Shown: positions 7,758-20,574 of the stretch, in pieces
Layout: each line of letters opens with the position of its first letter
How positions within the stretch are numbered: the stretch's first letter is position 1
From: an uncultured Chitinophagaceae bacterium
GTDB lineage: Bacteria; Bacteroidota; Ignavibacteria; Kapaibacteriales; UBA961
NCBI GenBank assembly: GCA_964527785.1
Contig: CAZGNO010000003.1
Location: 7,974 to 71,973, forward strand
Direction: 5' to 3'
DNA: 64,000 bases
Notes under the pieces: model-generated
The model's input: only the letters and a program-made list of their open reading frames with translations
What the model was told of the DNA's origin: nothing
Databases searched by the model: none
Translations under genes and position numbers: made by a program

Positions 7758-9137
7758 TCAAAGTTTCTCAAAATGCGCAGTAAAATGCCGTAGTAATTTC
7801 GGTTCTTTTGTAATTCTGTATCCTCTCGCCTGCGATTTGTTTTTCAGCAGTTCATCAAAAACTTCAACCACATAATCCACATGGCTTTGCGTATATACTC
7901 TGCGCGGTATAGCAAGTCGTACAAGCTCCATTGCAGCCGGAATTAGCTGTCCCTGTTCATCATATTTACCGAACATTACCGAGCCGACTTCCACACACCT
8001 GATACCGCCGATACGGTATAATTCACATACCAACGCCTGCCCGGGATACTCATGAAGCGGAATATGGTCGTAGAGTTTCGCCGAGTTGATATATACAGCG
8101 TGACCTCCTATCGGATACATCACAGGAACACCCTTTTCACGAATTTTCTCGCCCAAATACTCCGTGCTTTTAATCCGGTAATACAGATAATCCTTATCGA
8201 AAATTTCCCTGAGTCCGACTGCAATTGCTTCCATGTCCCGACCGCTCAACCCGCCATACGTCGTAAATCCTTCCGTTATAATGAGCAGGTTGGTACATGC
8301 ATCGGCTAACTGCTCATCTTTTAGAGCCAAGAAGCCGCCCATATTTACTAGGGCATCTTTTTTGGCACTCATCAAACATCCGTCAGCCAAGGCAAACATT
8401 TGTTGGGCAATTTCCTTGTATGTGTGATTTTCATAGCCCGCCTCCCGGTGCTTGATGAAATAACTGTTCTCGGCAATTCTGCAACAGTCAATGATAAACA
8501 GCACGTTGTGCCTTTTGCAGACATCTGCGACATCTTTTGCATTTTGCATACTTACGGGCTGACCACCACCGCTGTTGTTTGTTACGGTCAGTATCACCGC
8601 ACCAATATTTTCGGGCTTGTGTTCGGTGATTAGTTTCTCTAATTTAGTACAGTCTAAATTCCCTTTAAAAGGATAATAATTTTCGTGATTTTTCGATTCT
8701 TCTACCGGAATATCGTATGCGGTAGCACCGCTAAACTCAATATTCGCCCTGGTAGTATCGAAATGTGTGTTGCTTATGAATACCTTGCCCTCACCGCCTA
8801 AATGACCGTATAATATTCGCTCTGCGGCTCGTCCCTGATGAGTTGGTAAAATAAAAGGGTAGGACGTAAGGTCGAAAACTGCATCATAAAAACGCTCCCA
8901 ACTTTCTGCCCCGGCATACGATTCATCTCCTCGCATCATGGCTGCCCACTGCTCGTTGCTCATTGCAGATGTACCGCTGTCTGTCAGAAAATCAATAATT
9001 ACTTGTTTGCTTTTTAATAAAAAAGGATTGTAATGAGCCGCTTCCAAATACTGTATTCTCTCGGCTTCGGTGCTCATATGGATGGACTCTACCGATTTAA
9101 TTTTGAATGGTTCTATTATTGTTTTAAAGTTCATCAT
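7758..9137 (-). CDS. tnaA: Tryptophanase (PLP-dependent tryptophan indole-lyase)
   Basis: EPFKIKSVE, DFLTDSGT, THQGRAAE, PLP lysine motif MSAKKD, RLAIPRRVYTQSH. C-terminal LRHFTA has His as in TnaA, versus LRFFTA in tyrosine phenol-lyase. Confidence 0.88.
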   Translation of the reverse strand: MMNFKTIIEPFKIKSVESIHMSTEAERIQYLEAAHYNPFLLKSKQVIIDFLTDSGTSAMSNEQWAAMMRGDESYAGAESWERFYDAVFDLTSYPFILPTHQGRAAERILYGHLGGEGKVFISNTHFDTTRANIEFSGATAYDIPVEESKNHENYYPFKGNLDCTKLEKLITEHKPENIGAVILTVTNNSGGGQPVSMQNAKDVADVCKRHNVLFIIDCCRIAENSYFIKHREAGYENHTYKEIAQQMFALADGCLMSAKKDALVNMGGFLALKDEQLADACTNLLIITEGFTTYGGLSGRDMEAIAVGLREIFDKDYLYYRIKSTEYLGEKIREKGVPVMYPIGGHAVYINSAKLYDHIPLHEYPGQALVCELYRIGGIRCVEVGSVMFGKYDEQGQLIPAAMELVRLAIPRRVYTQSHVDYVVEVFDELLKNKSQARGYRITKEPKLLRHFTAHFEKL

Positions 9138-9233
9138 GATTATTTGTGTAATGTTGAAAATAACCGAAATGAGAAGATAACCTGATTTAATAACTCATCG
9201 TTCTGGTGTTTATTCCGGCGACGAAAATTTGCC

Positions 9234-10766
9234 TCACACTTCTTCTGCATAATGAGTTCCTCGGTTTTCTGTTCTATTCAGTGCAAATGAAGTGATAAGC
9301 ATTGCAGTTTCAACCATATTTAGTAACTCAAATGCCTTATAAGTTCTTCCATGAATTTTAATTTCTGATATAAGCAATTTTCGCCATACGTTTAATTGAT
9401 TTTCAGCTAATTTCATTCTAATAGGATTTCTTACTATACCTAAATTGTTCCACATCAGGTGTTGAATATCTGATTTGTAAACTGAAGAAATATCTGACTC
9501 AATACTTAGTAATTTTTCATGATAATATTTGTGTAATGCACTCTTTGTCTGTTTCGGAATTTTTATGTTTTCTTTAATGGATGCTGCGGCAGCATCAGCA
9601 AATACAATTCCTTCAAGTAAGGAATTGCTGGCAAGTCTATTTGCACCGTGTACACCTGTACAAGCTACTTCGCCAATGGCGTACAAACTATTAATAGAAG
9701 TTTTTGCATCAATACCGGTTGCTACACCTCCGCAGATATAATGTGCCGCAGGAACTACCCTAATCATTTCAGTACCAATATCAATATCGTAATTTTTACA
9801 AGTATTATAAATAAACGGAAACTCCTCTTGTAGTTTTTTTTCACCAATCGAAGTTGCATCTAAATACAAAAAATCACTTCCTTCACATAACATTTCTTTC
9901 ACCATACAGCGTGCAACAATATCTCGTGGAGCTAATGAACCCATAGTATGATATTTATACATAAACTGTATACCCTTTGAATCTTTTAATTGTGCACCGG
10001 CTCCTCTCAGTGCTTCACTTATTAAAATATTATCTTCACGGTTAGGAAGATATAGCATCGTAGGGTGAAATTGAATGAACTCCATATTCATCATAGCTGC
10101 ACCCGCCCTGTGAGCCAATGCATACCCGTCACCTGTGGCAGATTGAGGGTTAGTATTGAACGTATATAGATTGCCGCCGCCGCCGGTGGCTAAGACTATT
10201 ATTTCGGCGTAGTGATTTTCAATTGATTGCAACTGAGTATTCAATATACTTGCACCTATTGCCGAATTATTCTCAATTATCAAATCTAAAACAAAGTGAT
10301 GTTCTTTGATTGTAATATTTGGGTGATTTCTGACAATATGGATTAATTTGTTTATTACTTCTTTCCCTGTTTCATCTTTGATATGCACAATCCTATTATG
10401 ACTATGTCCTCCTTCTCTTGATAAATCAAATTGCAGGTTTCCATCTTTATTAAATTCAGTTCCGAAGGTTGTCAAATCTTCTATACAACGAAGTGAATTT
10501 TGAATCATGTATGTAACTGCTTTTTCATTGCATAATCCGGCTCCGGCTAATAGAGTATCCTGAATATGACATGATATTGAATCGTTATCACCAAAAGGTG
10601 CGGCTATTCCCCCTTTGGCTTGATAAGAATTTGACTTTGATAGCTCATCTTTGGTATAGATTGTTACGGTAGCAAATTCTGCTGCTTTTATTGCAAAATA
10701 TAAACCGCTTATTCCTCCACCAATGCAGATAATGTCTAAGTTTGAAGTTTCTGATGAAGTATACAT
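9234..10766 (-). CDS. nadB: L-aspartate oxidase
   Basis: FAD motif GGGISGL, SREGGHSHNRIVH, EFIQFHPT, LISEALRG, LAPRDIVAR, GVHGANRLASNSLLE; adjacent to nadA. Confidence 0.93.
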   Translation of the reverse strand: MYTSSETSNLDIICIGGGISGLYFAIKAAEFATVTIYTKDELSKSNSYQAKGGIAAPFGDNDSISCHIQDTLLAGAGLCNEKAVTYMIQNSLRCIEDLTTFGTEFNKDGNLQFDLSREGGHSHNRIVHIKDETGKEVINKLIHIVRNHPNITIKEHHFVLDLIIENNSAIGASILNTQLQSIENHYAEIIVLATGGGGNLYTFNTNPQSATGDGYALAHRAGAAMMNMEFIQFHPTMLYLPNREDNILISEALRGAGAQLKDSKGIQFMYKYHTMGSLAPRDIVARCMVKEMLCEGSDFLYLDATSIGEKKLQEEFPFIYNTCKNYDIDIGTEMIRVVPAAHYICGGVATGIDAKTSINSLYAIGEVACTGVHGANRLASNSLLEGIVFADAAAASIKENIKIPKQTKSALHKYYHEKLLSIESDISSVYKSDIQHLMWNNLGIVRNPIRMKLAENQLNVWRKLLISEIKIHGRTYKAFELLNMVETAMLITSFALNRTENRGTHYAEEV

Positions 10767-10775
10767 ACTATGTAC

Positions 10776-11777
10776 TTAATTATATTGGAGCATTCGCCTA
10801 ACCGGTATTGAAGCTGCCTTGATGGTATTGTCATCTAAGGTGATTTCATAGGAATGCTCGTCTGCCGTTCCTATTGACTGGAGTGTTTTAAGAATTGAAT
10901 CCAACGTTATCATTTTCATGTAAGGGCATTTTATACATGGAGTTATAAATTCTTTGCCGACAAACAACCTTTTTAAGGTACTTCCCAAGTCACATTCTGA
11001 CGCTAGAATAAATGTATGATCTTTACTCTGAGAAACATAATTGATAATATCATTTGTACTCCCCAAAACCCCTCCCATTTCACTTATGTTTTCTTGTACT
11101 GTTTGGTCAGGTACTTCCCAGTGTAATAACATTTTCGCATCGGGATGCTCTGCTTTCATTGAAGCAAAAGAATCCGATTTGAATTGCTCATGAACCTCAC
11201 AATAGCCATTCCATAGTATGAGTTTTTTTCCTGTTTCAGAATGTATTTTGTTCCGAAGATTTTCGCCCATAAATTTGTCAGGCAGAAATATCAAGGTGTC
11301 TTCTTCAAAAGATTTGGCAATGGAGAGTGCATTACGGGAAGTGCAACAAATATCACATTCCGCTTTAGTTTCGGCATACGTGTTTACATAAGCAATAATC
11401 GGTACTCCCGGATATTGCTTCCTAAGATTTAGTACATCCTCCTTTGTAATACTCGAAGCAAGCGAACAACCGGCTAACTTATCAGGTATATACACATTTT
11501 TGGCCGGGTTTAAAATCTTAGCAGTTTCTGCCATGAAATGTACCCCGCAAAAAACAATATTCTGTTGTTCTACCTTCGTTGCTTCGATACTTAACCCCAA
11601 AGAGTCACCTAAAAAATCTGCAATTCCATCATCGTGAATCAATAGCTGAATCTCAGGTGCCATATAATAATGGGATAGAATAACAGCATTCTTTTCTTTT
11701 TTTAAAAGACCGATTTGATGATAATATTCTTGGGTGGTAAGTGTATGGGGTACATTTTTTTGCCGTGAATCATCCAT
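10776..11777 (-). CDS. nadA: Quinolinate synthase ([4Fe-4S])
   Basis: ILSHYY, GDSL, FCGVHFMAETAK, AGCSLA, YVNT, CTSRNA, YCEVH, CPYMK; likely ATG at 11777 (track starts at 11816). Confidence 0.93.
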   Translation of the reverse strand: MDDSRQKNVPHTLTTQEYYHQIGLLKKEKNAVILSHYYMAPEIQLLIHDDGIADFLGDSLGLSIEATKVEQQNIVFCGVHFMAETAKILNPAKNVYIPDKLAGCSLASSITKEDVLNLRKQYPGVPIIAYVNTYAETKAECDICCTSRNALSIAKSFEEDTLIFLPDKFMGENLRNKIHSETGKKLILWNGYCEVHEQFKSDSFASMKAEHPDAKMLLHWEVPDQTVQENISEMGGVLGSTNDIINYVSQSKDHTFILASECDLGSTLKRLFVGKEFITPCIKCPYMKMITLDSILKTLQSIGTADEHSYEITLDDNTIKAASIPVRRMLQYN

Positions 11778-11920
11778 AAAATACTTTATTACTTTCTTAA
11801 TACGTATAGAAATCAAAAAAAGACCAATTGCATCGTTTACTTAATAGGCAACAGCTGAAACCTATAAAAAAACAATAGGGTTTTCATTTCGATTACATAC
11901 AGATTCATATCCTAAATCCA

Positions 11921-12753: not shown

Positions 12754-13197
12754 TCATGTAATGATATTATGTATAAATACATTACCGTTGTTTGTATCCT
12801 CTGCCATCTGTTTTATGGTTTTTGTCTCAAATAATTGTACCAACTGTTGTTTTATTGATTTATATCCTTCGTGCAGAGGGCATGGATTAGCAGAAGAGCA
12901 TTTTTTTAATCCAAGTAAACATTTTTCGAGCGTTTCATTCTCACCGGTAACGATTAAGACAGACCAAATCGGCAAATGCTTTGCTTCCTCTGTTATATAA
13001 AAGCCACCATTCGGACCGCGAATTGAACTAATTATACGATTTTCCTTAGTAAGCAGTTGTAGTATTTTGGCTGTAAATGATTTAGGCGAATCAATGGCTT
13101 TTGATATTTCCTCGATTCCTAATTTACAGTCAAATGAACTTTTTTGAGCGATATAAATAGTTGCCCTTATCGCGTATTCCGTTGTTTTTGAGAACAT
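12754..13197 (-). CDS. Rrf2-family transcriptional regulator
   Basis: MFSKTTEYAIRA, SFTAKILQLL, SIRGPNGGF, Cys cluster CLLGLKKCSSANPCPLH (Fe-S ligands). Confidence 0.93.
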   Translation of the reverse strand: MFSKTTEYAIRATIYIAQKSSFDCKLGIEEISKAIDSPKSFTAKILQLLTKENRIISSIRGPNGGFYITEEAKHLPIWSVLIVTGENETLEKCLLGLKKCSSANPCPLHEGYKSIKQQLVQLFETKTIKQMAEDTNNGNVFIHNIIT

Positions 13198-13270: not shown

Positions 13271-14626
13271 TTACTTACTAAGATTTCCATTGAAATAGGA
13301 GTTGAATTGATTTTTTAAAAGTGGATAGATAATTATCATGATTCCTACAGTCAGTAGTAAGCCGGAAACAAAGAACGTAATAAAAAATGGCTGTAATTGC
13401 AGCATCATAACGTTAAAAAGTATCCGTTCTGAACTCATTTGCCATTTTGCTTTTATCACTCCTGCCGATATAAGACTTAACCAAAAGATAAGTAAAGCAA
13501 TATTTGCCAGCCAAAATGCTTTGTTGAATAGTTTATTAAATTTTTTATGACTTTGAATAGAATCAAAAAGAATATCATAAGCAATCCCAAGTAAAAGAAA
13601 ACAGTTTATACCAATAGTTGCACCCATAGTATGTGCAACAGTAATATGAGTCCCATGGGTATATACATTAACTGCCGGAATTGACATTGCAATTGCCAAT
13701 GCCAGAGTTAAAAATACCCACGCGTCTGCGGCAACAAGAAATCGGTATGCTATATGGTGTATGTGTTTCCTGGCTGTAGTTACTGATGTTTTCCATTTAT
13801 AAAGTATTCTGTCGAATATGAAAAGTTCAGTCATGCTCACCGCGTAACTTATATGCTTAATAAAATCGTGGGTTGGCAATGTGTAAATATGATGTCCCCA
13901 GTTGAACAACAAATTAAATAGACCAAGAAAAAACAATAAGAAAGCAATGAATGAATGGCTGTAGGTTTTGTCACTACTTATTTTTTCCATCAGAAATAGA
14001 CTGCATCCATAAATAAGCATATTCCACGAGCCGACCATCGAACCATACGCTTTCCATTGTACAGTCATGTCGTTGATAATATTGTCCCTAAAGTATGGGA
14101 ATATCCATAAGTATGATTCAATAAATGTGAATAGAAAGAATATTACACCGGTTGTCCACATCCAAACATATACCGGTTGTTTCGTAAAAGTTCCTATTGA
14201 TTTAAAAAAGTTGATTATGAATAGTATCCAACTCACAATGATCGGTAATGCCAGAATCGGGTTAAACTCCCAATACTCTCTTCCGCCAAATACACCTACA
14301 CAATAAGAAACCAAAATTGCAATAATGGTGCCTATGAAAATGATCAATTGGATTTTCATAAGATTCAGAGAATAGATATTCCTACCCGTATGCTGCTGTA
14401 AATATATCAGTACGCTTCCTACAGCTCCCAAAATTATCCAAAAAACCACTGATGAAACGTGCAAAGGTCTAATTTTTTCAAAGGAAAGAAAATGCTTTTG
14501 GAACCCTGGCACAAGATATTGAAGTGCACCTGTCAAACCAAATATCACTCCAATCGCCAGAAGCATTAGACCTGTGGTTAAAAATAACTTTGCAATAACC
14601 AGCTGCTTATTGTTTAATTGTTCCAT
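13271..14626 (-). CDS. Divergent heme-copper oxidase superfamily subunit I (NorB-like) with non-canonical active site
   Basis: ~12 TM segments; RPLHV, GREYWE, WGHHIY, THGTHITVAHTM. Lacks the helix VI HLWVE motif. Probable start 14626 overlaps the cytochrome c stop (track start 14665). Confidence 0.8.
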   Translation of the reverse strand: MEQLNNKQLVIAKLFLTTGLMLLAIGVIFGLTGALQYLVPGFQKHFLSFEKIRPLHVSSVVFWIILGAVGSVLIYLQQHTGRNIYSLNLMKIQLIIFIGTIIAILVSYCVGVFGGREYWEFNPILALPIIVSWILFIINFFKSIGTFTKQPVYVWMWTTGVIFFLFTFIESYLWIFPYFRDNIINDMTVQWKAYGSMVGSWNMLIYGCSLFLMEKISSDKTYSHSFIAFLLFFLGLFNLLFNWGHHIYTLPTHDFIKHISYAVSMTELFIFDRILYKWKTSVTTARKHIHHIAYRFLVAADAWVFLTLALAIAMSIPAVNVYTHGTHITVAHTMGATIGINCFLLLGIAYDILFDSIQSHKKFNKLFNKAFWLANIALLIFWLSLISAGVIKAKWQMSSERILFNVMMLQLQPFFITFFVSGLLLTVGIMIIIYPLLKNQFNSYFNGNLSK

Positions 14627-14996
14627 TACCATTGATTTTGAAAGTTCTTGGGTCAGATTTTCCACTTCGGTCTATAGTATTCAGGTAAGCGAGTAAGGAG
14701 ATTATTTCTTCGTCTGTTAAATTGAAATTGGGCATAATATCCGTTCCATTTTTAAGAAATGCCTTGATGAAGTTACTGTCTCTATAAGAATATTCATTAG
14801 TAAGATCAGGAGCAAGATAGCCACCAAGTCCATAAATTTGATGACAGGCATTACAATTATACTTTTGCCATATTTGTTTTCCTATAACTGATTGATTGTC
14901 AATAGTATAATCCTTCACAGGAAGAGATGAATACAGAAAGCAGGTATAGAATCCAAAAGCAAATACCAGAGAAAGTACTGCTGATATTTTTAACAT
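14607..14996 (-). CDS. Membrane-anchored monoheme cytochrome c, NorC-like
   Basis: N-terminal TM helix, GKQIWQKYNCNACHQIYGLGGYLAPDLT, distal Met in IMPNF; start at 14996 or 15008. Confidence 0.88.
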   Translation of the reverse strand: MLKISAVLSLVFAFGFYTCFLYSSLPVKDYTIDNQSVIGKQIWQKYNCNACHQIYGLGGYLAPDLTNEYSYRDSNFIKAFLKNGTDIMPNFNLTDEEIISLLAYLNTIDRSGKSDPRTFKINGNGTIKQ

Positions 14997-15024
14997 TTCA
15001 ATCACCATAAAAAATTTTCTAAAC

Positions 15025-15089
15025 AATAAGGACAAGATTGTCTTTATTTTATGTATTTTTGCATAAATAAAGACAAAATTATCCTTTTC
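15025..15089. promoter_or_regulatory. Two imperfect palindromic operator boxes (probable Rrf2 sites) flanking a -7 promoter box
   Basis: AATAAGGACAAGATTGTCTTTATT (15025-15048) and AATAAAGACAAAATTATCCTTTTC (15066-15089), with TATTTTTG (15054-15061) between them. Confidence 0.65.
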
Positions 15090-15133: not shown

Positions 15134-17434
15134 ATGAAAAGTTACCTGCTCAATCCTAAAAATTGGTGGCTGCCATTACTTCTGATTTTCGTTATTAGTG
15201 CTACAGGTGTCACAGTAATAGGTATTCATACTTATACAGAAGCTCCACCCATCCCGTTGTATTATTCCTCTAATAATAATGCAGTGTTTACAAAAGATGA
15301 TATATTGAAAGGGCAGGAGGTGTTTCAAAAATATGCTCTGATGGAATATGGCAGTATGTTTGGCGATGGGGCATATAGAGGTCCTGATTTTACCGCGGAA
15401 GCATTGCATTATGTTTCTCGGTATATGAATGAGTATTACCAGTCTCAAGTGAAAACCGGAGCAGGAACAGAATTGCTTACAAAAGGTATTTCCGAGCAAG
15501 TTAAAGCAGAAGTAAAAACCAATCTTTACTCTGAAAAAAATAACAGCGTATTGCTGTCTGATGCTCAAGAGTTTGCTGCAAAAGAGTTGATTACCTATTA
15601 TTCGAAAAAATTTACTGACCCTACCCTTGCCGATGCATTTAAGCCGGGAAATTATATTTCCAATGGTGAAGAAATACGATGTCTTACTGCTTTTTTCTTC
15701 TGGGGTTCATGGGTATGCGGAGTTGAAAGACCCGGCGAGAAATACAGTTATACCCATAATTGGCCTTTCGATCCTGAAGCAGGCAACACCCCAAGTTCTG
15801 CCGTTATTATTTGGAGCATTATCGGCTCATTGGCATTAATCTTCGGACTGGGAATTGTCTTATATTATCACGGAAAACTTGATAAATTAGACAATAATGT
15901 CTATACAAACAAAGCACAGCCATTTATGTCGAGGGAAGAAATAATGAACTTCCAACCAGACGCAGTTCAGCGTTCTACCTATAAGTTCTTTTATACTGCT
16001 ATGCTTCTTTTCGGCGTACAGATTTTGGCAGGTATATTAACCGTTCATGATTTTGTCGGTTTCACCAACTTTTTTGGATTTGATATTTCAATATCGTTAC
16101 CTGTTACTATAACAAGAAGTTGGCATGTGCAATTATCCATTCTATGGATTTCGGCGTGTTGGATTGGTTCTTCATTTTTTATGATGTCGCTTGTTTCACC
16201 AATACAATCTAAAAGTCAGTTAAAACTAATAAACACCATTTTTTGGCTTACGATTGTATTAATTGCAGGGGCTTTTACAGGTATGCTTTTAGGCCCACAC
16301 GGACTTTTGGGCAACAACTGGTATTGGCTCGGTCATCAGGGGTGGGAATATGTTGAATTAGGGAAACTTTGGCAAATATTACTCGGCATTATATTTATAT
16401 TTTGGGCAGTTACATTATATCGTGGCATTAAACCAGTAATGAAACTGGGGCAACCGTGGGCTTTGCCTAACTGGTTGGTGTATTCAACATTCAGTATTAT
16501 CGTTCTGTTGGTCTCCGGCTTTATTGCAACTCCAAAAACCAATTTTGTCATAGCCGATTTCTGGCGATGGATGGTTGTACATATGTGGGCAGAAGCGTTT
16601 TTTGAAGTTTTTACAACAGTATTAATAGGTTACTTTATGGTGTTGATGGGACTGGTAAGCAGACAAGCAGCAATTCGCGTTATTTATTTAGCCACTTTAT
16701 TGTTTCTAGGTTCGGGACTACTTGGTATTTCTCATAATTTTTATTGGAATGCAAAACCTGTAGGAACAATGGCTTTGGGGGCTGTATTTTCTACTTTACA
16801 GGTAATTCCATTGATACTACTTACCTTAGAAGCGTCACGATTCAGTCGGCTTCCCAAAATATTGGAGAGTAGCAATAAGGTGAATGGAGATATAAGTAAA
16901 CAATTCGGTTTTTCAGAAGTATTCCTTTTTTTAGTTGCAGTGAATTTCTGGAACTTTTTTGGCGCAGGGGTGCTTGGTTTTATCATCAATCTTCCCATTG
17001 CCAACTATTATGAGCATGGTACGTACCTAACAGTAAATCATGGTCATGCTGCATTGATGGGTGTATATGGGAATCTCGCTTTGGCAGCGGTTTTGTTTTG
17101 CTGTCAGTTACTTGTTAAGTCTGATTGGTGGAAACCGAGAATCATAAAAATTGTTTTCTGGTCAATCAATATCGGATTGCTGTTAATGGTGTTTTTAGAT
17201 TTATTCCCCGCAGGAATATTTCAATTTACGTCAGTAACCGAACATGGACTTTGGTACGCCCGCAGCAGTGAATTTATTGAAAGCAATACATTTCAAAACC
17301 TTACATGGCTTCGGCTTATCGGAGGATCGCTGTTCACCTTAGGAGGTGTACTGCCGTTGATTTGGTTCATCGTCCGAAGCAGAAGAGGGTTAAAACTAAA
17401 AAAGCTATCAGAGGTTGCTCATAAATCCAAGTAA
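15134..17434 (+). CDS. norZ: qNor-family nitric oxide reductase large subunit with NO-dismutase (Nod)-type substitutions
   Basis: GDGAYRGPDFTAEALH, YTHNWP, RSWHVQ, QGWEYVELG, VHMWAEAFFE, GISHNFYW (HH->HN), FSTLQV (E->Q), NHGHAA. Confidence 0.9.
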   Translation: MKSYLLNPKNWWLPLLLIFVISATGVTVIGIHTYTEAPPIPLYYSSNNNAVFTKDDILKGQEVFQKYALMEYGSMFGDGAYRGPDFTAEALHYVSRYMNEYYQSQVKTGAGTELLTKGISEQVKAEVKTNLYSEKNNSVLLSDAQEFAAKELITYYSKKFTDPTLADAFKPGNYISNGEEIRCLTAFFFWGSWVCGVERPGEKYSYTHNWPFDPEAGNTPSSAVIIWSIIGSLALIFGLGIVLYYHGKLDKLDNNVYTNKAQPFMSREEIMNFQPDAVQRSTYKFFYTAMLLFGVQILAGILTVHDFVGFTNFFGFDISISLPVTITRSWHVQLSILWISACWIGSSFFMMSLVSPIQSKSQLKLINTIFWLTIVLIAGAFTGMLLGPHGLLGNNWYWLGHQGWEYVELGKLWQILLGIIFIFWAVTLYRGIKPVMKLGQPWALPNWLVYSTFSIIVLLVSGFIATPKTNFVIADFWRWMVVHMWAEAFFEVFTTVLIGYFMVLMGLVSRQAAIRVIYLATLLFLGSGLLGISHNFYWNAKPVGTMALGAVFSTLQVIPLILLTLEASRFSRLPKILESSNKVNGDISKQFGFSEVFLFLVAVNFWNFFGAGVLGFIINLPIANYYEHGTYLTVNHGHAALMGVYGNLALAAVLFCCQLLVKSDWWKPRIIKIVFWSINIGLLLMVFLDLFPAGIFQFTSVTEHGLWYARSSEFIESNTFQNLTWLRLIGGSLFTLGGVLPLIWFIVRSRRGLKLKKLSEVAHKSK

Positions 17435-19077: not shown

Positions 19078-19284
19078 AATTTTCTAGTTTGAGTTACTTT
19101 ATTTGTTAAAATTGTGGCTTTCTAGGTACGAAATTACCAAAACTTAGCCACTTTTTACCGTTTTCTTCCAATTTTTACAAAAAACCTTTGTCCAAATTGT
19201 AACCAAATCGTAGATTTGTTAGTCTATGTAATTAATGTTGATTTTAATATTTATCCAATCCATTTTACTTTAGGAGTAATCAAA

Positions 19285-20574
19285 ATGAAAAAGTTTACAG
19301 TTTTTCTCGCTCTTCTTGCCGCTATTGTATCCGTTGGAACGGCGCAAGTAAAGAAAAGAGTGAGTATGTCTACGATTCCAAGTGCTCGTACCGGCATTGA
19401 GGCAAGTGTACAAAGTCTTAGCACGGCAGCTCTATCAACCAGTCTTCCTGTTGTAAATAAACTTACCTATGGTGTTGGAGTCCCTGTTATGCCGGACTAT
19501 ATGGTAGCAGAAACTCAGTATGTTGTTTTTGATGCTCCTCGTGATACTTCAGATTCAGGGTTTGCACTTACGAGTCGTGTTGATCCTCAAAGTCGTGTTA
19601 CTACAGGTCTTTATGATATTCCAACGGTTGTGAATTTCTCGGATGCAAACAACAATATAACCCCAAATGCAATTTTCGGTTATGCTCAATTTTTTCCTCC
19701 TTTCGGAACATCAGGTTCGTTAACAATTGATACGGTTGTATTCCAACTGTTTCAATATTCACGTGACAACCAGCATATTACTCCTATTAAAAGGGACGTA
19801 TTGCTTATCCCATATGGTATAAAAGCAAATCTTCAAACAAGAACTCCTGGTGCAGAATTTTCTCTTGATGATCCGGGATTACGTCAATTAGGTGACGAAA
19901 TTGAAATTTCTGCAGCAACTATAAATAGTGCCTTGGATTTAACTACTACTCCTGCTACAATAAACAACATCGTTCTTAGAGTACCGGATTGGAAAGTAGA
20001 AGCAGGTGAAACTTTTGGATTTGTATTATACTCACAAGGTCCAACCGATACAATGCGTCTTTTCGGGACATATATGTGGGGATTAAAGGACAGTACACAA
20101 ACTCTTGGCTATGTATTGCGTCGTACTCCTGCCGGTGATGAATTTGCATTAAAACAAGCTGGGATTGGCTTCTTTAATCCGTCAGCTGAATTTGCTACTG
20201 CATTCCCTTCTTTGGTTAATCGCGGTTTGCGCATAAACTACTTCTTTGTGGTTGGCGGCATTCTCGAAACTACTGGTACTGGTGCAGTCGAAACCCTCAC
20301 AAACGATGCTAAGAACTTCTCGCTTGAACAAGTAGCTCCTAATCCTGTTGTAAATGCGACAAAGATTCAGTTCTCATTGCAAGAACCTTCTACAGTTTCC
20401 CTCCGTGTCGTTAATTCACTCGGTCAGGTTGTACAAGAACTTGCAAGCGGTGCTATGACAACCGGTACATATGCTGCTGATTTTGATGCAACAAATCTTC
20501 CTGCCGGAATGTACTACTATACATTGACAGCAGGTACTCATTCGCTCACACGCTCGATGGTTGTTGTAAAATAA
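19285..20574 (+). CDS. Secreted protein with T9SS type A sorting domain
   Basis: AGGAG then MKKFTVFLALLAAIVSVGTAQ signal; C-terminal APNPV...VVNSLGQ...LPAGMYYY...MVVVK. Confidence 0.85.
   Translation: MKKFTVFLALLAAIVSVGTAQVKKRVSMSTIPSARTGIEASVQSLSTAALSTSLPVVNKLTYGVGVPVMPDYMVAETQYVVFDAPRDTSDSGFALTSRVDPQSRVTTGLYDIPTVVNFSDANNNITPNAIFGYAQFFPPFGTSGSLTIDTVVFQLFQYSRDNQHITPIKRDVLLIPYGIKANLQTRTPGAEFSLDDPGLRQLGDEIEISAATINSALDLTTTPATINNIVLRVPDWKVEAGETFGFVLYSQGPTDTMRLFGTYMWGLKDSTQTLGYVLRRTPAGDEFALKQAGIGFFNPSAEFATAFPSLVNRGLRINYFFVVGGILETTGTGAVETLTNDAKNFSLEQVAPNPVVNATKIQFSLQEPSTVSLRVVNSLGQVVQELASGAMTTGTYAADFDATNLPAGMYYYTLTAGTHSLTRSMVVVK

Follow-up and report, generated by a model that had tools for sequence, protein, structure and literature searches.

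The window, a 64,000-nucleotide stretch of DNA, carries a NOD-type gene of the qNor family and, facing away from it, an operon encoding a NorC-like cytochrome, a NorB-like oxidase and an Rrf2-family regulator. A 98-bp divergent control region lies between the two arms. The features discussed here are as follows.

12754 to 13197, minus strand: regulator of the Rrf2 family (147 aa; C-x6-C-x5-C motif), at the end of the divergent operon
13271 to 14665, minus strand: NorB-like subunit of a haem-copper oxidase (464 aa), site rebuilt; divergent operon
14607 to 15035, minus strand: NorC-like membrane-anchored mono-haem cytochrome c, 142 aa, with CNACH; first gene of the divergent operon
15030 to 15084, no strand: two 14-bp palindromic boxes, GGACAAGATTGTCT (15030-15043) and AGACAAAATTATCC (15071-15084); candidate Rrf2 operator
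15134 to 17434, plus strand: NOD-type qNor-family gene, 766 aa; open, intact reading frame
Catalytic-core residues of the 766-aa protein: H331, H483, H534, N535, Q556, H636, H638
Quinol-site residues of the 766-aa protein: H305, G309, F313, W725, R727, G731

The 766-aa protein consists of an N-terminal transmembrane (TM) helix, a haem-less cytochrome-c-like domain (residues 45-211) and an HCO core (282-732), with Pfam matches to PF22085 (E 4.8e-46) and PF00115 (E 1.8e-50). No CxxCH motif occurs in its translation, and NCBIfam assigned it no family. On the other arm, the small cytochrome matches PF13442 (E 1.4e-9) and NorC chain 3O0R_C (E 3.2e-7), and the 464-aa oxidase matches PF00115 (E 2.1e-30) and 4XYD_A (E 4.1e-18). 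The site of this oxidase is rebuilt, with Gly at the first FeB His, Val and Asn at two Glu positions, and AHTMG in place of HGH, which exchanges a haem b ligand His for Met. These motifs were retained in all eight of the homologues that were extracted (of 12).

The regulator gave E 8e-20 with PF02082 and 77.8 bits with TIGR00738 (cut-off 73.3), the Rrf2 superfamily being the sole NCBIfam model that it passed; the NsrR equivalog NF008240 scored 36.6 bits against a cut-off of 182. As NCBIfam does not make the protein an NsrR equivalog, it is genomic context that suggests a role in NO sensing. The cysteines of its C-x6-C-x5-C spacing are presumably cluster ligands.

The divergent control region

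The AGACAAAATTATCC box lies about 63 nt before the ATG of the NOD-type gene. Across 80 related loci (765,270 bp in total), the pattern RGAY[AT]ANNT[AT]RTCY matched 36 times, 29 of them within 250 bp upstream of the NOD-type gene. The box is thus present at 29 of the 77 loci whose upstream DNA is long enough, against an expectation of 0.9. Nearly all of these boxes stand at one fixed offset, and the other 48 loci lack the box at the stringency used. In the window's own genome, the box RGAYAANNTTRTCY had 8 matches against 7.3 expected from base composition. Two lie in the divergent promoter and two within MetH-like and EF-G-like genes, identified by eye from their translations; around the other four, no reading frame of at least 80 aa that starts with ATG occurs within about 230 bp. 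We found no wider regulon in this genome, where only the two promoter boxes look functional.

An Rrf2 gene lies divergently upstream at 27 of 43 loci (at least 68% identity and at least 1200 bp upstream), in keeping with the report by Elbon et al. that Rrf2 regulators adjoin Bacteroidota nod genes. The NorC-like/NorB-like pair is less regular. It occupies the same divergent position at 12 of the 80 related metagenome loci and, when 3 kb or more of upstream DNA and 68% identity or more are required, at 8 of 34; it is absent from all four genome loci (L112-L115). Among 80 Nod-proper loci, cytochrome c/HCO neighbours were found only at L021, by a weak match. A QueD/PTPS-like gene sits in 7 of the 14 gaps inspected between the Rrf2 gene and the NOD-type gene (5 distinct sequences). 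Since it takes the place of the pair there, the link between the NOD-type gene and the pair is one of shared regulation rather than obligate partnership.

Catalytic and quinol-site residues

A HMMER alignment to G. stearothermophilus qNOR 3AYF (E 3.2e-154, covering 10-749) equates H305 with H328, H483/E487 with H508/E512, H534-N535 with H559-H560, Q556 with E581, and G731 with D746. F336 is retained as F313, and E332 is lost, with G309 in its place. In an alignment to A. xylosoxidans (Ax) qNOR 6QQ5, in which the quinol-site residues His328 and Asp746 are numbered His305 and Asp724, W725 corresponds to Trp718 and R727 to Arg720, and the Trp/Arg electron-entry pair is therefore retained. The ligands of haem b and haem b3 are all present, as are two of the three FeB histidines. 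The NOD signature consists of the change of the remaining FeB His to Asn (N535) and of the channel Glu to Gln (Q556). E487, the equivalent of Ax Glu490, which has been called essential, and E491 are both retained. Identity to the solved qNORs decides the fold.

These alignments bear out most of what the initial annotation had read from the locus. All nine of its residue calls (H305, H483, E487, H534, N535, Q556, H636, H638, G731) were right in position and motif, the matches that it gave to H560, E581, D746 and H328 of Geobacillus qNor agree with the 3AYF alignment, and its half-retained quinol site is what we found, four of the six positions being kept (H305, F313, W725, R727) and two substituted (G309, G731). 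Its label "paralog" was wrong, because a search of the whole genome (98.7% complete) with the 766-aa protein returned only the protein itself and its 464-aa neighbour (E 1.2e-5), and no canonical qNor.

Compared with canonical qNOR (3AYF/3AYG, 6QQ5, and N. meningitidis 6FWF), the protein shares the fused haem-less cytochrome-c-like domain and 12-TM HCO core, the haem ligands, H328 and F336, and, in Ax numbering, Trp718, Arg720, Glu490 and Glu494, but has N for H560, Q for E581 and G for both E332 and D746, and is 33-39% identical. It resembles Methylomirabilota/HdN1-type Nod (Ettwig et al. 2010, 2012; here locus L064 and the P0125 group) in fold, in both haem sites, and in having the His-Asn pair, the Gln, Gly at the D746 position, a D306-F307 motif, and Met at 480 and 484. 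Identity to these is 42-48%, and they form a sister clade rather than the same clade. Of 17 positions that tell qNor and Nod proper apart, the 766-aa protein is Nod-like at 8 and qNor-like at 4.

Whereas the 766-aa protein has H305, Nod proper has lost this quinol-site His, with Thr, Met, Glu and others in its place (12 or more different residues when redundant sequences are counted). It also mostly has Tyr (59 of 102) where clade A retains Trp. The loop after the His is of qNOR length in clade A and 3 residues shorter in the Nod-proper rows inspected, but longer at the Methylomirabilota locus L064.

Placement and clade-wide conservation

Two trees, both quick searches with SH-aLRT support and without bootstrap, place the protein in a branch whose members all carry the Asn and the Gln (N/Q branch; SH-aLRT 100 in both), with the qNor groups outside it. 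Support was 98-99 for the Bacteroidota-type clade and 100 for Nod proper, including the Methylomirabilota MAG locus L064. The sister of the clade that holds the 766-aa protein contains the Methylomirabilota MAG sequence together with proteins annotated by JGI as 'nitric oxide dismutase'. The alignment and tree that had been proposed as a check thus set the protein apart from canonical qNors.

Close matches of the protein are named Ferruginibacter, Sediminibacterium, Hydrotalea and Flavihumibacter; those labelled Flavihumibacter fluvii (from a species genome) and Sediminibacterium sp. (from a MAG) are 78-79% identical to it. Sediminibacterium is listed among NOD holders by Ruff et al. (2024, PMC11549561), according to whom Bacteroidota account for more than half of genomic NODs. 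Bacteroidota NOD subclades are published in that paper and by Ettwig et al. (2012, PMC3413370; a Muricauda ruestringensis sequence), and Elbon et al. describe 'unknown Nor-related' Bacteroidota sequences, so the remark in the initial annotation that such sequences occur in this phylum is borne out. What the published subclades and this locus have in common are the FeB His-to-Asn and Glu-to-Gln changes, the taxa, the adjoining Rrf2 regulator and, at times, other nor-like genes nearby; as far as can be told, there is no essential difference. By its sequence, the gene is an ordinary member of a large, very common, published Bacteroidota branch of putative NO dismutases. The earlier description of it as an intermediate between qNor and Nod is not supported; the quinol site is partly retained, but in a whole published Bacteroidota NOD group and not in a lone intermediate.

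The same residues, H/G/N/Q/G at H305/G309/N535/Q556/G731, occur in all 119 full-length close homologues (76-90% identity), and a pattern common to all of them is not due to chance. We compared non-redundant sets cut at 85% identity, namely clade A (to which the 766-aa protein belongs; n = 82), clade B (n = 6), Nod proper (n = 102) and qNors (n = 37). N535 and Q556 are invariant across clade A, clade B and Nod proper (190/190 N/Q-branch sequences), whereas canonical qNors have H and E at these positions in 37/37. The qNOR quinol-site states, H-x3-E and Asp at the D746 position, are found in 29/37 and 36/37 qNors, respectively. Clade A has its own conserved set: H305, R727 and G731 in 82/82, the Trp (W725) in 80/82, and G, N or D at the E332 position in 82/82. 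H305 has an entropy of 0 bits in the 82 clade-A sequences vs 2.47 bits in the 102 of Nod proper, and T303 and W725 show the same contrast in constraint, although overall divergence is alike (mean column entropy of 0.74 bits for the TM domain of clade A and 0.88 for Nod proper). Such position-specific conservation of H305, T303 and W725 suggests that the electron-entry site is still in use, which would fit a reductase as well as a priming role. The predicted partial quinol site is, then, a trait of the whole clade and not of one intermediate gene. As defined by Ettwig et al. (2012, PMC3413370), Murali et al. (2022, 2024) and Ruff et al. (2024, PMC11549561), a NOD has one FeB His changed to Asn, the catalytic-site Glu changed to Gln, and no proper quinol-binding site, and it falls with M. 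oxyfera-type sequences rather than with qNors. The text of Ettwig et al., Ruff et al. and Elbon et al., figures and supplements aside, describes the quinol site as lost from NOD and makes no mention of the retention of His328, Phe336, Trp718 and Arg720 in this clade.

Two candidate readings of these data were dropped. A quick tree hinted that the Bacteroidota clade lacking the His branches from within the lineages that have it, with the His lost twice, but an AU test did not support this: the tree that keeps all 58 His-bearing rows together had a log-likelihood 19.9 higher (p-AU 0.70). The His-less and His-bearing Bacteroidota clades are best treated as sisters. Two losses of the His cost the same number of changes as one loss and one regain, and the retained His is only possibly the ancestral state. 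The other reading, that E332 is already Gly or Ala in Bacteroidota qNors and G309 hence no NOD trait, was withdrawn as a MAFFT artefact in an indel-bearing loop. Bacteroidota qNors in our sample have H-x3-E in 25/25 when the raw offset is counted from the His, and in both trees the letters given for 332/336 in the row labels can be relied on only within clade A.

Proposed function and alternatives

The genome (98.7% complete) has a NosZ propeller and two other HCO genes, but no other qNOR and no canonical cNOR. Searches of it gave no match to NirS, NrfA or NarG, and scores far below cut-off for NirK (34.9 bits vs 296) and NapA (24 bits vs 930). With NosZ present and no nitrite, nitrate or NrfA-type reductase found, this pattern points to the scavenging of external NO. 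The role of the enzyme would accordingly be NO scavenging or detoxification rather than a step of the cell's own denitrification.

The explanation that we favor, and judge probable if only by a little, is of an intact Bacteroidota-type gene of the NOD branch, under Rrf2 control, whose product scavenges external NO without stoichiometric quinol oxidation at the classical site. The Rrf2 protein would bind the palindromes and release both arms once NO damages its Fe-S cluster, and the enzyme would then consume NO from outside the cell. As the catalytic substitutions are identical, its chemistry may be whatever all NODs do. NO turnover would not depend on such quinol oxidation, and the conserved His/Trp/Arg path would do no more than reductively prime the metal centre. 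Dismutation of NO to N2 and O2 is the standing, unproven hypothesis for such turnover; no NOD has been isolated (PMC13386854, 2026) or characterised biochemically, and none in purified form has been seen to convert 2 NO to N2 + O2 (PMC13386854). The 766-aa enzyme may release either O2 or N2O; the genome has no recognisable nitrite reductase that would supply an O2-producing enzyme.

Alternatively, and this we regard as possible but doubtful, the protein could be a working NO reductase that draws electrons from the quinol pool through Trp725/Arg727/His305 or from another donor and makes N2O, which NosZ would pass on to N2; the His-to-Asn and Glu-to-Gln signature would then be no marker of O2 formation in clade A. 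The conserved H305, W725 and R727 of clade A and its loop length are what one would expect of such an enzyme, particularly as Nod proper varies at these points, and the W718A and R720A mutations, which lower AxqNOR activity by about 85% (PMC13087809), indicate that the Trp and Arg matter for electron entry. E487 and E491 are in place, NosZ would use the N2O, and both of these also count against the explanation that we favor. The genome offers neither another qNOR nor a canonical cNOR, and no second qNor-family match was found in any of the five genomes of the phylum sample that have an N/Q-type gene (0/5). Set against this, Glu332 and Asp746 are both replaced in 82/82 sequences of clade A, and mutation of the equivalent His, Arg or Asp abolishes the activity of P. 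marina qNOR (as cited in PMC13087809). Bulkier residues line the pocket (Ax G301 to I and A304 to V), and the Gln at Ax Glu559 and the Asn for one FeB His are shared with Methylomirabilota-type enzymes; N2O production by the hosts of these is low (Ettwig 2012, PMC3413370). A further proposal, that the NOD-type protein, the NorC-like cytochrome and the NorB-like oxidase form one module in which one enzyme makes N2O or an intermediate that the other consumes, seems improbable to us. The control region with its two boxes is common to both arms, the pair recurs in the same divergent position, and 'unknown Nor-related' Bacteroidota genes are described on operons with other nor genes (Elbon et al.). 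Murali et al. (2024) describe a putative 'N2O red' family related to cNOR, which they propose may reduce N2O and to which the 464-aa protein might belong. Most related loci nonetheless lack the pair (26/34, and all four genome loci), and half of the inspected gaps hold the QueD/PTPS-like gene instead. The idea of a qNOR relic, in decay or without catalytic function, is already disfavored and strikes us as very unlikely: a metal ligand and three conserved acidic positions have changed, but the reading frame is unbroken, members of the clade diverge little, and all 190 non-redundant sequences carry the same substituted residues. A scan of 185,579 species genomes with two patterns, just one of them specific to the His-Asn motif, matched at least 598 stretches, of which 584 were confirmed relatives.

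NOD genes serve as markers of light-independent O2 production. In clade A, four of six compared quinol and electron-entry residues are under clear constraint, yet the NOD catalytic substitutions are present; as the clade also occurs in cultured, non-pathogenic genera, it allows a direct test of whether the signature stands for dismutation or for a variant reductase. We suggest only tentatively that the His-bearing Bacteroidota clade, maybe a large share of all genes called 'nod' in genomes, may still take in electrons along the conserved Trp/Arg/His path and reduce NO to N2O at an FeB site modified by Asn. If so, the His-to-Asn and Glu-to-Gln signature would by itself be no marker of oxygen production, claims made from metagenomes for a 'dark oxygen' potential of Bacteroidota would need revising, and the catalytic site would have been remodelled before electron input was given up. 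The conserved candidate operator, together with the Rrf2 gene, provides a handle for inducing a NOD-type gene. The sequencing runs listed as containing this stretch are three DNA runs of one study, with no RNA run among them.

Active-site residues and distribution

The studied gene encodes an intact, conserved NOD-type (putative NO dismutase) enzyme of the qNor family:

15134-17434, + strand, NOD-type gene, open reading frame of 766 aa

Pfam placed the qNOR-specific heme-less cytochrome c-like domain PF22085 at residues 45 to 211 (E = 4.8e-46) and the heme-copper oxidase core PF00115 at residues 282 to 732 (E = 1.8e-50), and an NCBIfam search of the protein gave no family name. Its best solved relative was G. 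stearothermophilus qNOR (3AYF; E = 3.2e-154). The active-site residues singled out in the initial annotation were all recovered by script, namely, H305 (TVHDFV), H483/E487 (VHMWAE), H534-N535 (GISHNFYW), Q556 (FSTLQV), H636/H638 (NHGHAA), and G731 (RLIGG), and those compared with qNor fall on the expected positions of 3AYF: H305 on H328, H483/E487 on H508/E512, H534-N535 on H559-H560, Q556 on E581, and G731 on D746. Not mentioned there are that the second quinol-site acid, E332, is G309 here, with F336 kept as F313, and that W725 and R727 align with Trp718 and Arg720 of A. xylosoxidans qNOR (6QQ5). An alignment in which E332 was already Gly in Bacteroidota qNors proved to be a MAFFT artifact, and that reading was withdrawn.

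The description of the gene as a paralog did not hold. The protein was searched against six frames of its own assembly (4.09 Mb in 186 contigs; completeness, 98.7%), which yielded the gene itself, a weak match in a 464-aa neighbor (E = 1.2e-5), and nothing else. A PF00115 search of this genome found four heme-copper oxidase genes: these two and two oxidase-like genes on other contigs.

The residue pattern is common among relatives. A word-index search gave 120 proteins at 76 to 100% identity among the matches listed, with source names that included Ferruginibacter, Sediminibacterium, Hydrotalea flava, Flavihumibacter fluvii, Chitinophagales, and Sphingobacteriales; all 119 full-length close homologs had His/Gly/Asn/Gln/Gly at the positions of H328/E332/H560/E581/D746. 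An exhaustive search of 50%-identity representatives had 21 near-full-length proteins among the matches listed, 2 with Asn/Gln/Gly and 19 canonical. The 2 with Asn/Gln/Gly are P0123 (57% identity), in which the quinol-site His is kept, and P0125 (42% identity), in which it is replaced. Relatives of P0125 include two proteins named "nitric oxide dismutase" by JGI, as well as proteins from metagenome-assembled genomes (MAGs) of Alpha- and Gammaproteobacteria, Myxococcota, and Acidobacteriota. Scanning 185,579 species genomes with the patterns SYTHNWP[YGF] and G[IV][SAG]HNFYW matched at least 598 stretches, 584 of them confirmed relatives; the best 80 of these 584, ranked to P0125 and including a Candidatus Methylomirabilota MAG (locus L064), had Asn/Gln in 80/80 and the quinol-site His in 0/80. 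Among 401 genomes drawn evenly from the phylum of the window, 37 matched at E ≤ 1e-30. Five of these, the window's own included, were at least 56% identical and of the Asn/Gln type (of four loci typed, two had His and two had Asn in its place). The other 32 were 31 to 37% identical, and the 25 with loci fetched were canonical qNors (7 were not typed).

Phylogeny and constraint on the quinol site

In a tree of 62 rows (IQ-TREE quick search, LG+C20 PMSF, SH-aLRT supports only), a branch supported at 100 separated the 40 Asn/Gln proteins, ours among them, from canonical qNors. Fifteen of these rows formed a Bacteroidota-type clade (support, 98), and the other 25, the Methylomirabilota sequence included, made up Nod proper (support, 100); the neighboring group comprised qNors, including the sampled Bacteroidota qNors (support, 97). 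A second tree of 81 rows (LG+G4, quick search, qNor outgroup) recovered the three main splits with supports of 99 to 100. Both are quick trees without bootstraps, with several long outgroup branches and a root assumed from the literature (Murali 2024). The second tree put the His-less Bacteroidota (clade B) among His-bearing lineages, a placement that would mean the quinol-site His was lost twice independently, but an AU test gave it no support; the tree with the 58 His-bearing rows as one clade beat the free quick tree by 19.9 in log-likelihood (p-AU = 0.70). Because the test did not back this nesting, we treat clade B and the His-bearing Bacteroidota-type proteins (clade A) as sisters. For the history of this His, two losses and one loss with a regain cost the same.

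We compared conservation in sets cut at 85% identity (clade A, 82; clade B, 6; Nod proper, 102; qNor, 37).

Residues at quinol and electron-entry positions (qNor equivalents in parentheses)
Position 305 (His328): clade A, His 82/82, 0 bits; Nod proper, 2.47 bits (Thr 49, Glu 15, Met 13, others); qNor, His 36/37
Position 303: clade A, Thr 82/82; Nod proper, 2.11 bits
Position 725 (Trp718): clade A, Trp 80/82; Nod proper, Tyr 59, Trp 16; qNor, Trp 31/37
Position 727 (Arg720): Arg invariant in clade A, Nod proper, and qNor
Position 731 (Asp746): clade A, Gly 82/82; Nod proper, Gly 98/102; qNor, Asp 36/37

Mean column entropies across the membrane domain were similar (0.74 bits in clade A versus 0.88 bits in Nod proper), and the contrast at the His is thus position specific. 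By raw offset from the His, clade A reads H-x3-G/N/D, and FFG or YFG follows at positions +8 to +10, spaced as in qNors. The Nod-proper rows inspected were mostly T-x3-R in a region three residues shorter, which agrees with a published Thr/Arg pattern of environmental nod sequences (PMC10286720); unlike these rows, the Methylomirabilota locus L064 has a longer loop. A fixed difference separates qNor from Nod proper at 17 positions; clade A agrees with Nod proper at 8 of them (N535, Q556, G731, M480, and M484 among them) and with qNor at 4, and shows a third state at the remaining 5. Additional signature positions of the Asn/Gln branch are Asp306-Phe307, immediately following the quinol-site His position, and Met480 and Met484, flanking the first FeB His; both NOD clades fix or almost fix these residues, and qNors do not.

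"Half-retained" is therefore an accurate term for this site: two acids are gone, and His, Phe, Trp, and Arg are kept under constraint. The initial annotation saw in this an intermediate between qNor and Nod; its observation is confirmed and its interpretation partly supported, as the half-retained site is a trait of the whole clade and not of one gene. Bacteroidota NODs have already been published. A flavobacterial sequence was grouped with the M. oxyfera and HdN1 proteins by Ettwig et al. in 2012 (PMC3413370), four NOD subclades, two almost exclusively from Bacteroidota, were described by Ruff et al. in 2024, with this phylum contributing more than half of GTDB NODs and Sediminibacterium among the holders (PMC11549561), and the clade was found again in a 2026 mSystems paper. 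The gene therefore joins a known group. NOD is described in the literature as lacking a quinol site; retention of His328/Phe336/Trp718/Arg720 by a Bacteroidota subclade was not mentioned in the accessible text of these sources, although figures or supplements may show it. The value of the clade lies in offering a workable system for testing the disputed chemistry of NOD, and not in the gene being new.

Catalytic chemistry and host physiology

No NOD had been isolated as of 2026 (PMC13386854). Since the catalytic substitutions are identical in 190/190 nonredundant sequences, we expect no difference in chemistry between clades. Because both quinol-site acids and the channel Glu are gone, we favor turnover without stoichiometric quinol oxidation, and the retained His/Trp/Arg path would serve priming. 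Alternatively, the enzyme may work as an NO reductase with retained electron entry. Trp718 and Arg720 are reported as part of the qNOR electron-entry route in a 2026 cryo-EM and mutagenesis study, W718A and R720A each costing ~85% of activity, and His305 and Asp724 (A. xylosoxidans numbering) are described there as hydrogen bonding quinol beside heme b (PMC13087809). In our protein, His305, Trp725, and Arg727 are strongly constrained and Glu487 and Glu491 are retained, and the genome has NosZ, all of which would suit a reductase. However, the quinol-site acids are lost, and P. marina qNOR became inactive when the equivalent Asp was mutated (cited in PMC13087809). We consider a reductase unlikely, although well short of negligible.

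In the host's own genome, NirS, NrfA, and NarG were not found and NirK and NapA had no match above threshold, so its own production of NO from nitrite cannot be shown; the NosZ propeller was clearly matched. This inventory suggests an N2O reducer that does not denitrify and that carries an NO-handling island, with NO supplied by neighboring organisms. The enzyme would then scavenge external NO, and its induction would respond to NO. Sequencing runs with this DNA are labeled groundwater metagenome, with no RNA run among them.

Divergent neighbors and promoter

Within 13271-15035, - strand, NorC-like cytochrome c, 142 aa, CNACH motif
Within 13271-15035, - strand, NorB-like oxidase beside it, 464 aa
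Divergent, upstream of the NOD-type gene, Rrf2-family regulator, 147 aa, C-x6-C-x5-C
15030-15043 and 15071-15084, two 14-bp palindromes of the form RGAYAA-NN-TTRTCY in the 98-bp divergent control region

The regulator passes the Rrf2 superfamily model alone (NsrR equivalog, 36.6 bits versus a cutoff of 182). In the 464-aa protein, the first FeB His is Gly, Val and Asn replace the two active-site Glu, and AHTMG stands in place of HGH (His-Thr-Met versus the His-Gly-His of cNOR). These rebuilt-site motifs are kept in 8/8 homologs extracted, and the protein is a possible member of the cNOR-related putative "N2O red" family (Murali et al. 2024).

We surveyed neighbors at 80 metagenome loci of relatives with 57 to 81% identity. 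The Rrf2 gene adjoins the NOD-type gene in most close relatives, lying divergently upstream (≥45% identity) at 27/43 loci of the ≥68% identity class with at least 1,200 bp upstream. The cytochrome-oxidase pair held the divergent position at 12/80 loci (8/34 in the ≥68% class with at least 3 kb upstream); at the four genome loci L112 to L115, the pair was not found and the Rrf2 gene was present in one. A gene of 144 to 155 aa resembling QueD/6-pyruvoyl-tetrahydropterin synthase (PTPS), named by eye from motifs, replaces the pair in 7 of 14 Rrf2-to-gene gaps inspected (five distinct sequences; loci L142, L149, L154, L155, L156, L159, and L182). Both kinds of neighbor, Rrf2 regulators and further nor genes in an operon, are described for Bacteroidota by Elbon et al., who read them as a role in nitrosative stress.

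The promoter palindrome is conserved. A degenerate pattern matched 36 times in 765,270 bp of related loci, 29 of these within 250 bp upstream of the NOD-type gene (29/77 evaluable loci versus 0.9 expected) and almost all at one offset; the downstream palindrome is the conserved one. Across the host genome the pattern showed no overall enrichment (8 matches versus 7.3 expected); two of the eight sit in this promoter and two others lie inside genes resembling MetH and EF-G (translated and named by eye). The palindromes are a candidate operator for the Rrf2 regulator.

Further along on the strand of the Rrf2 operon, window positions 7758-11816 (-) hold a beta-eliminating lyase of the tryptophanase/tyrosine phenol-lyase family (PF01212; E = 4.9e-71), NadB, and NadA. 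The protein encoded at 19216-20574 (+) carries the C-terminal sorting domain of type IX secretion (PF18962), which fits a Bacteroidota host.
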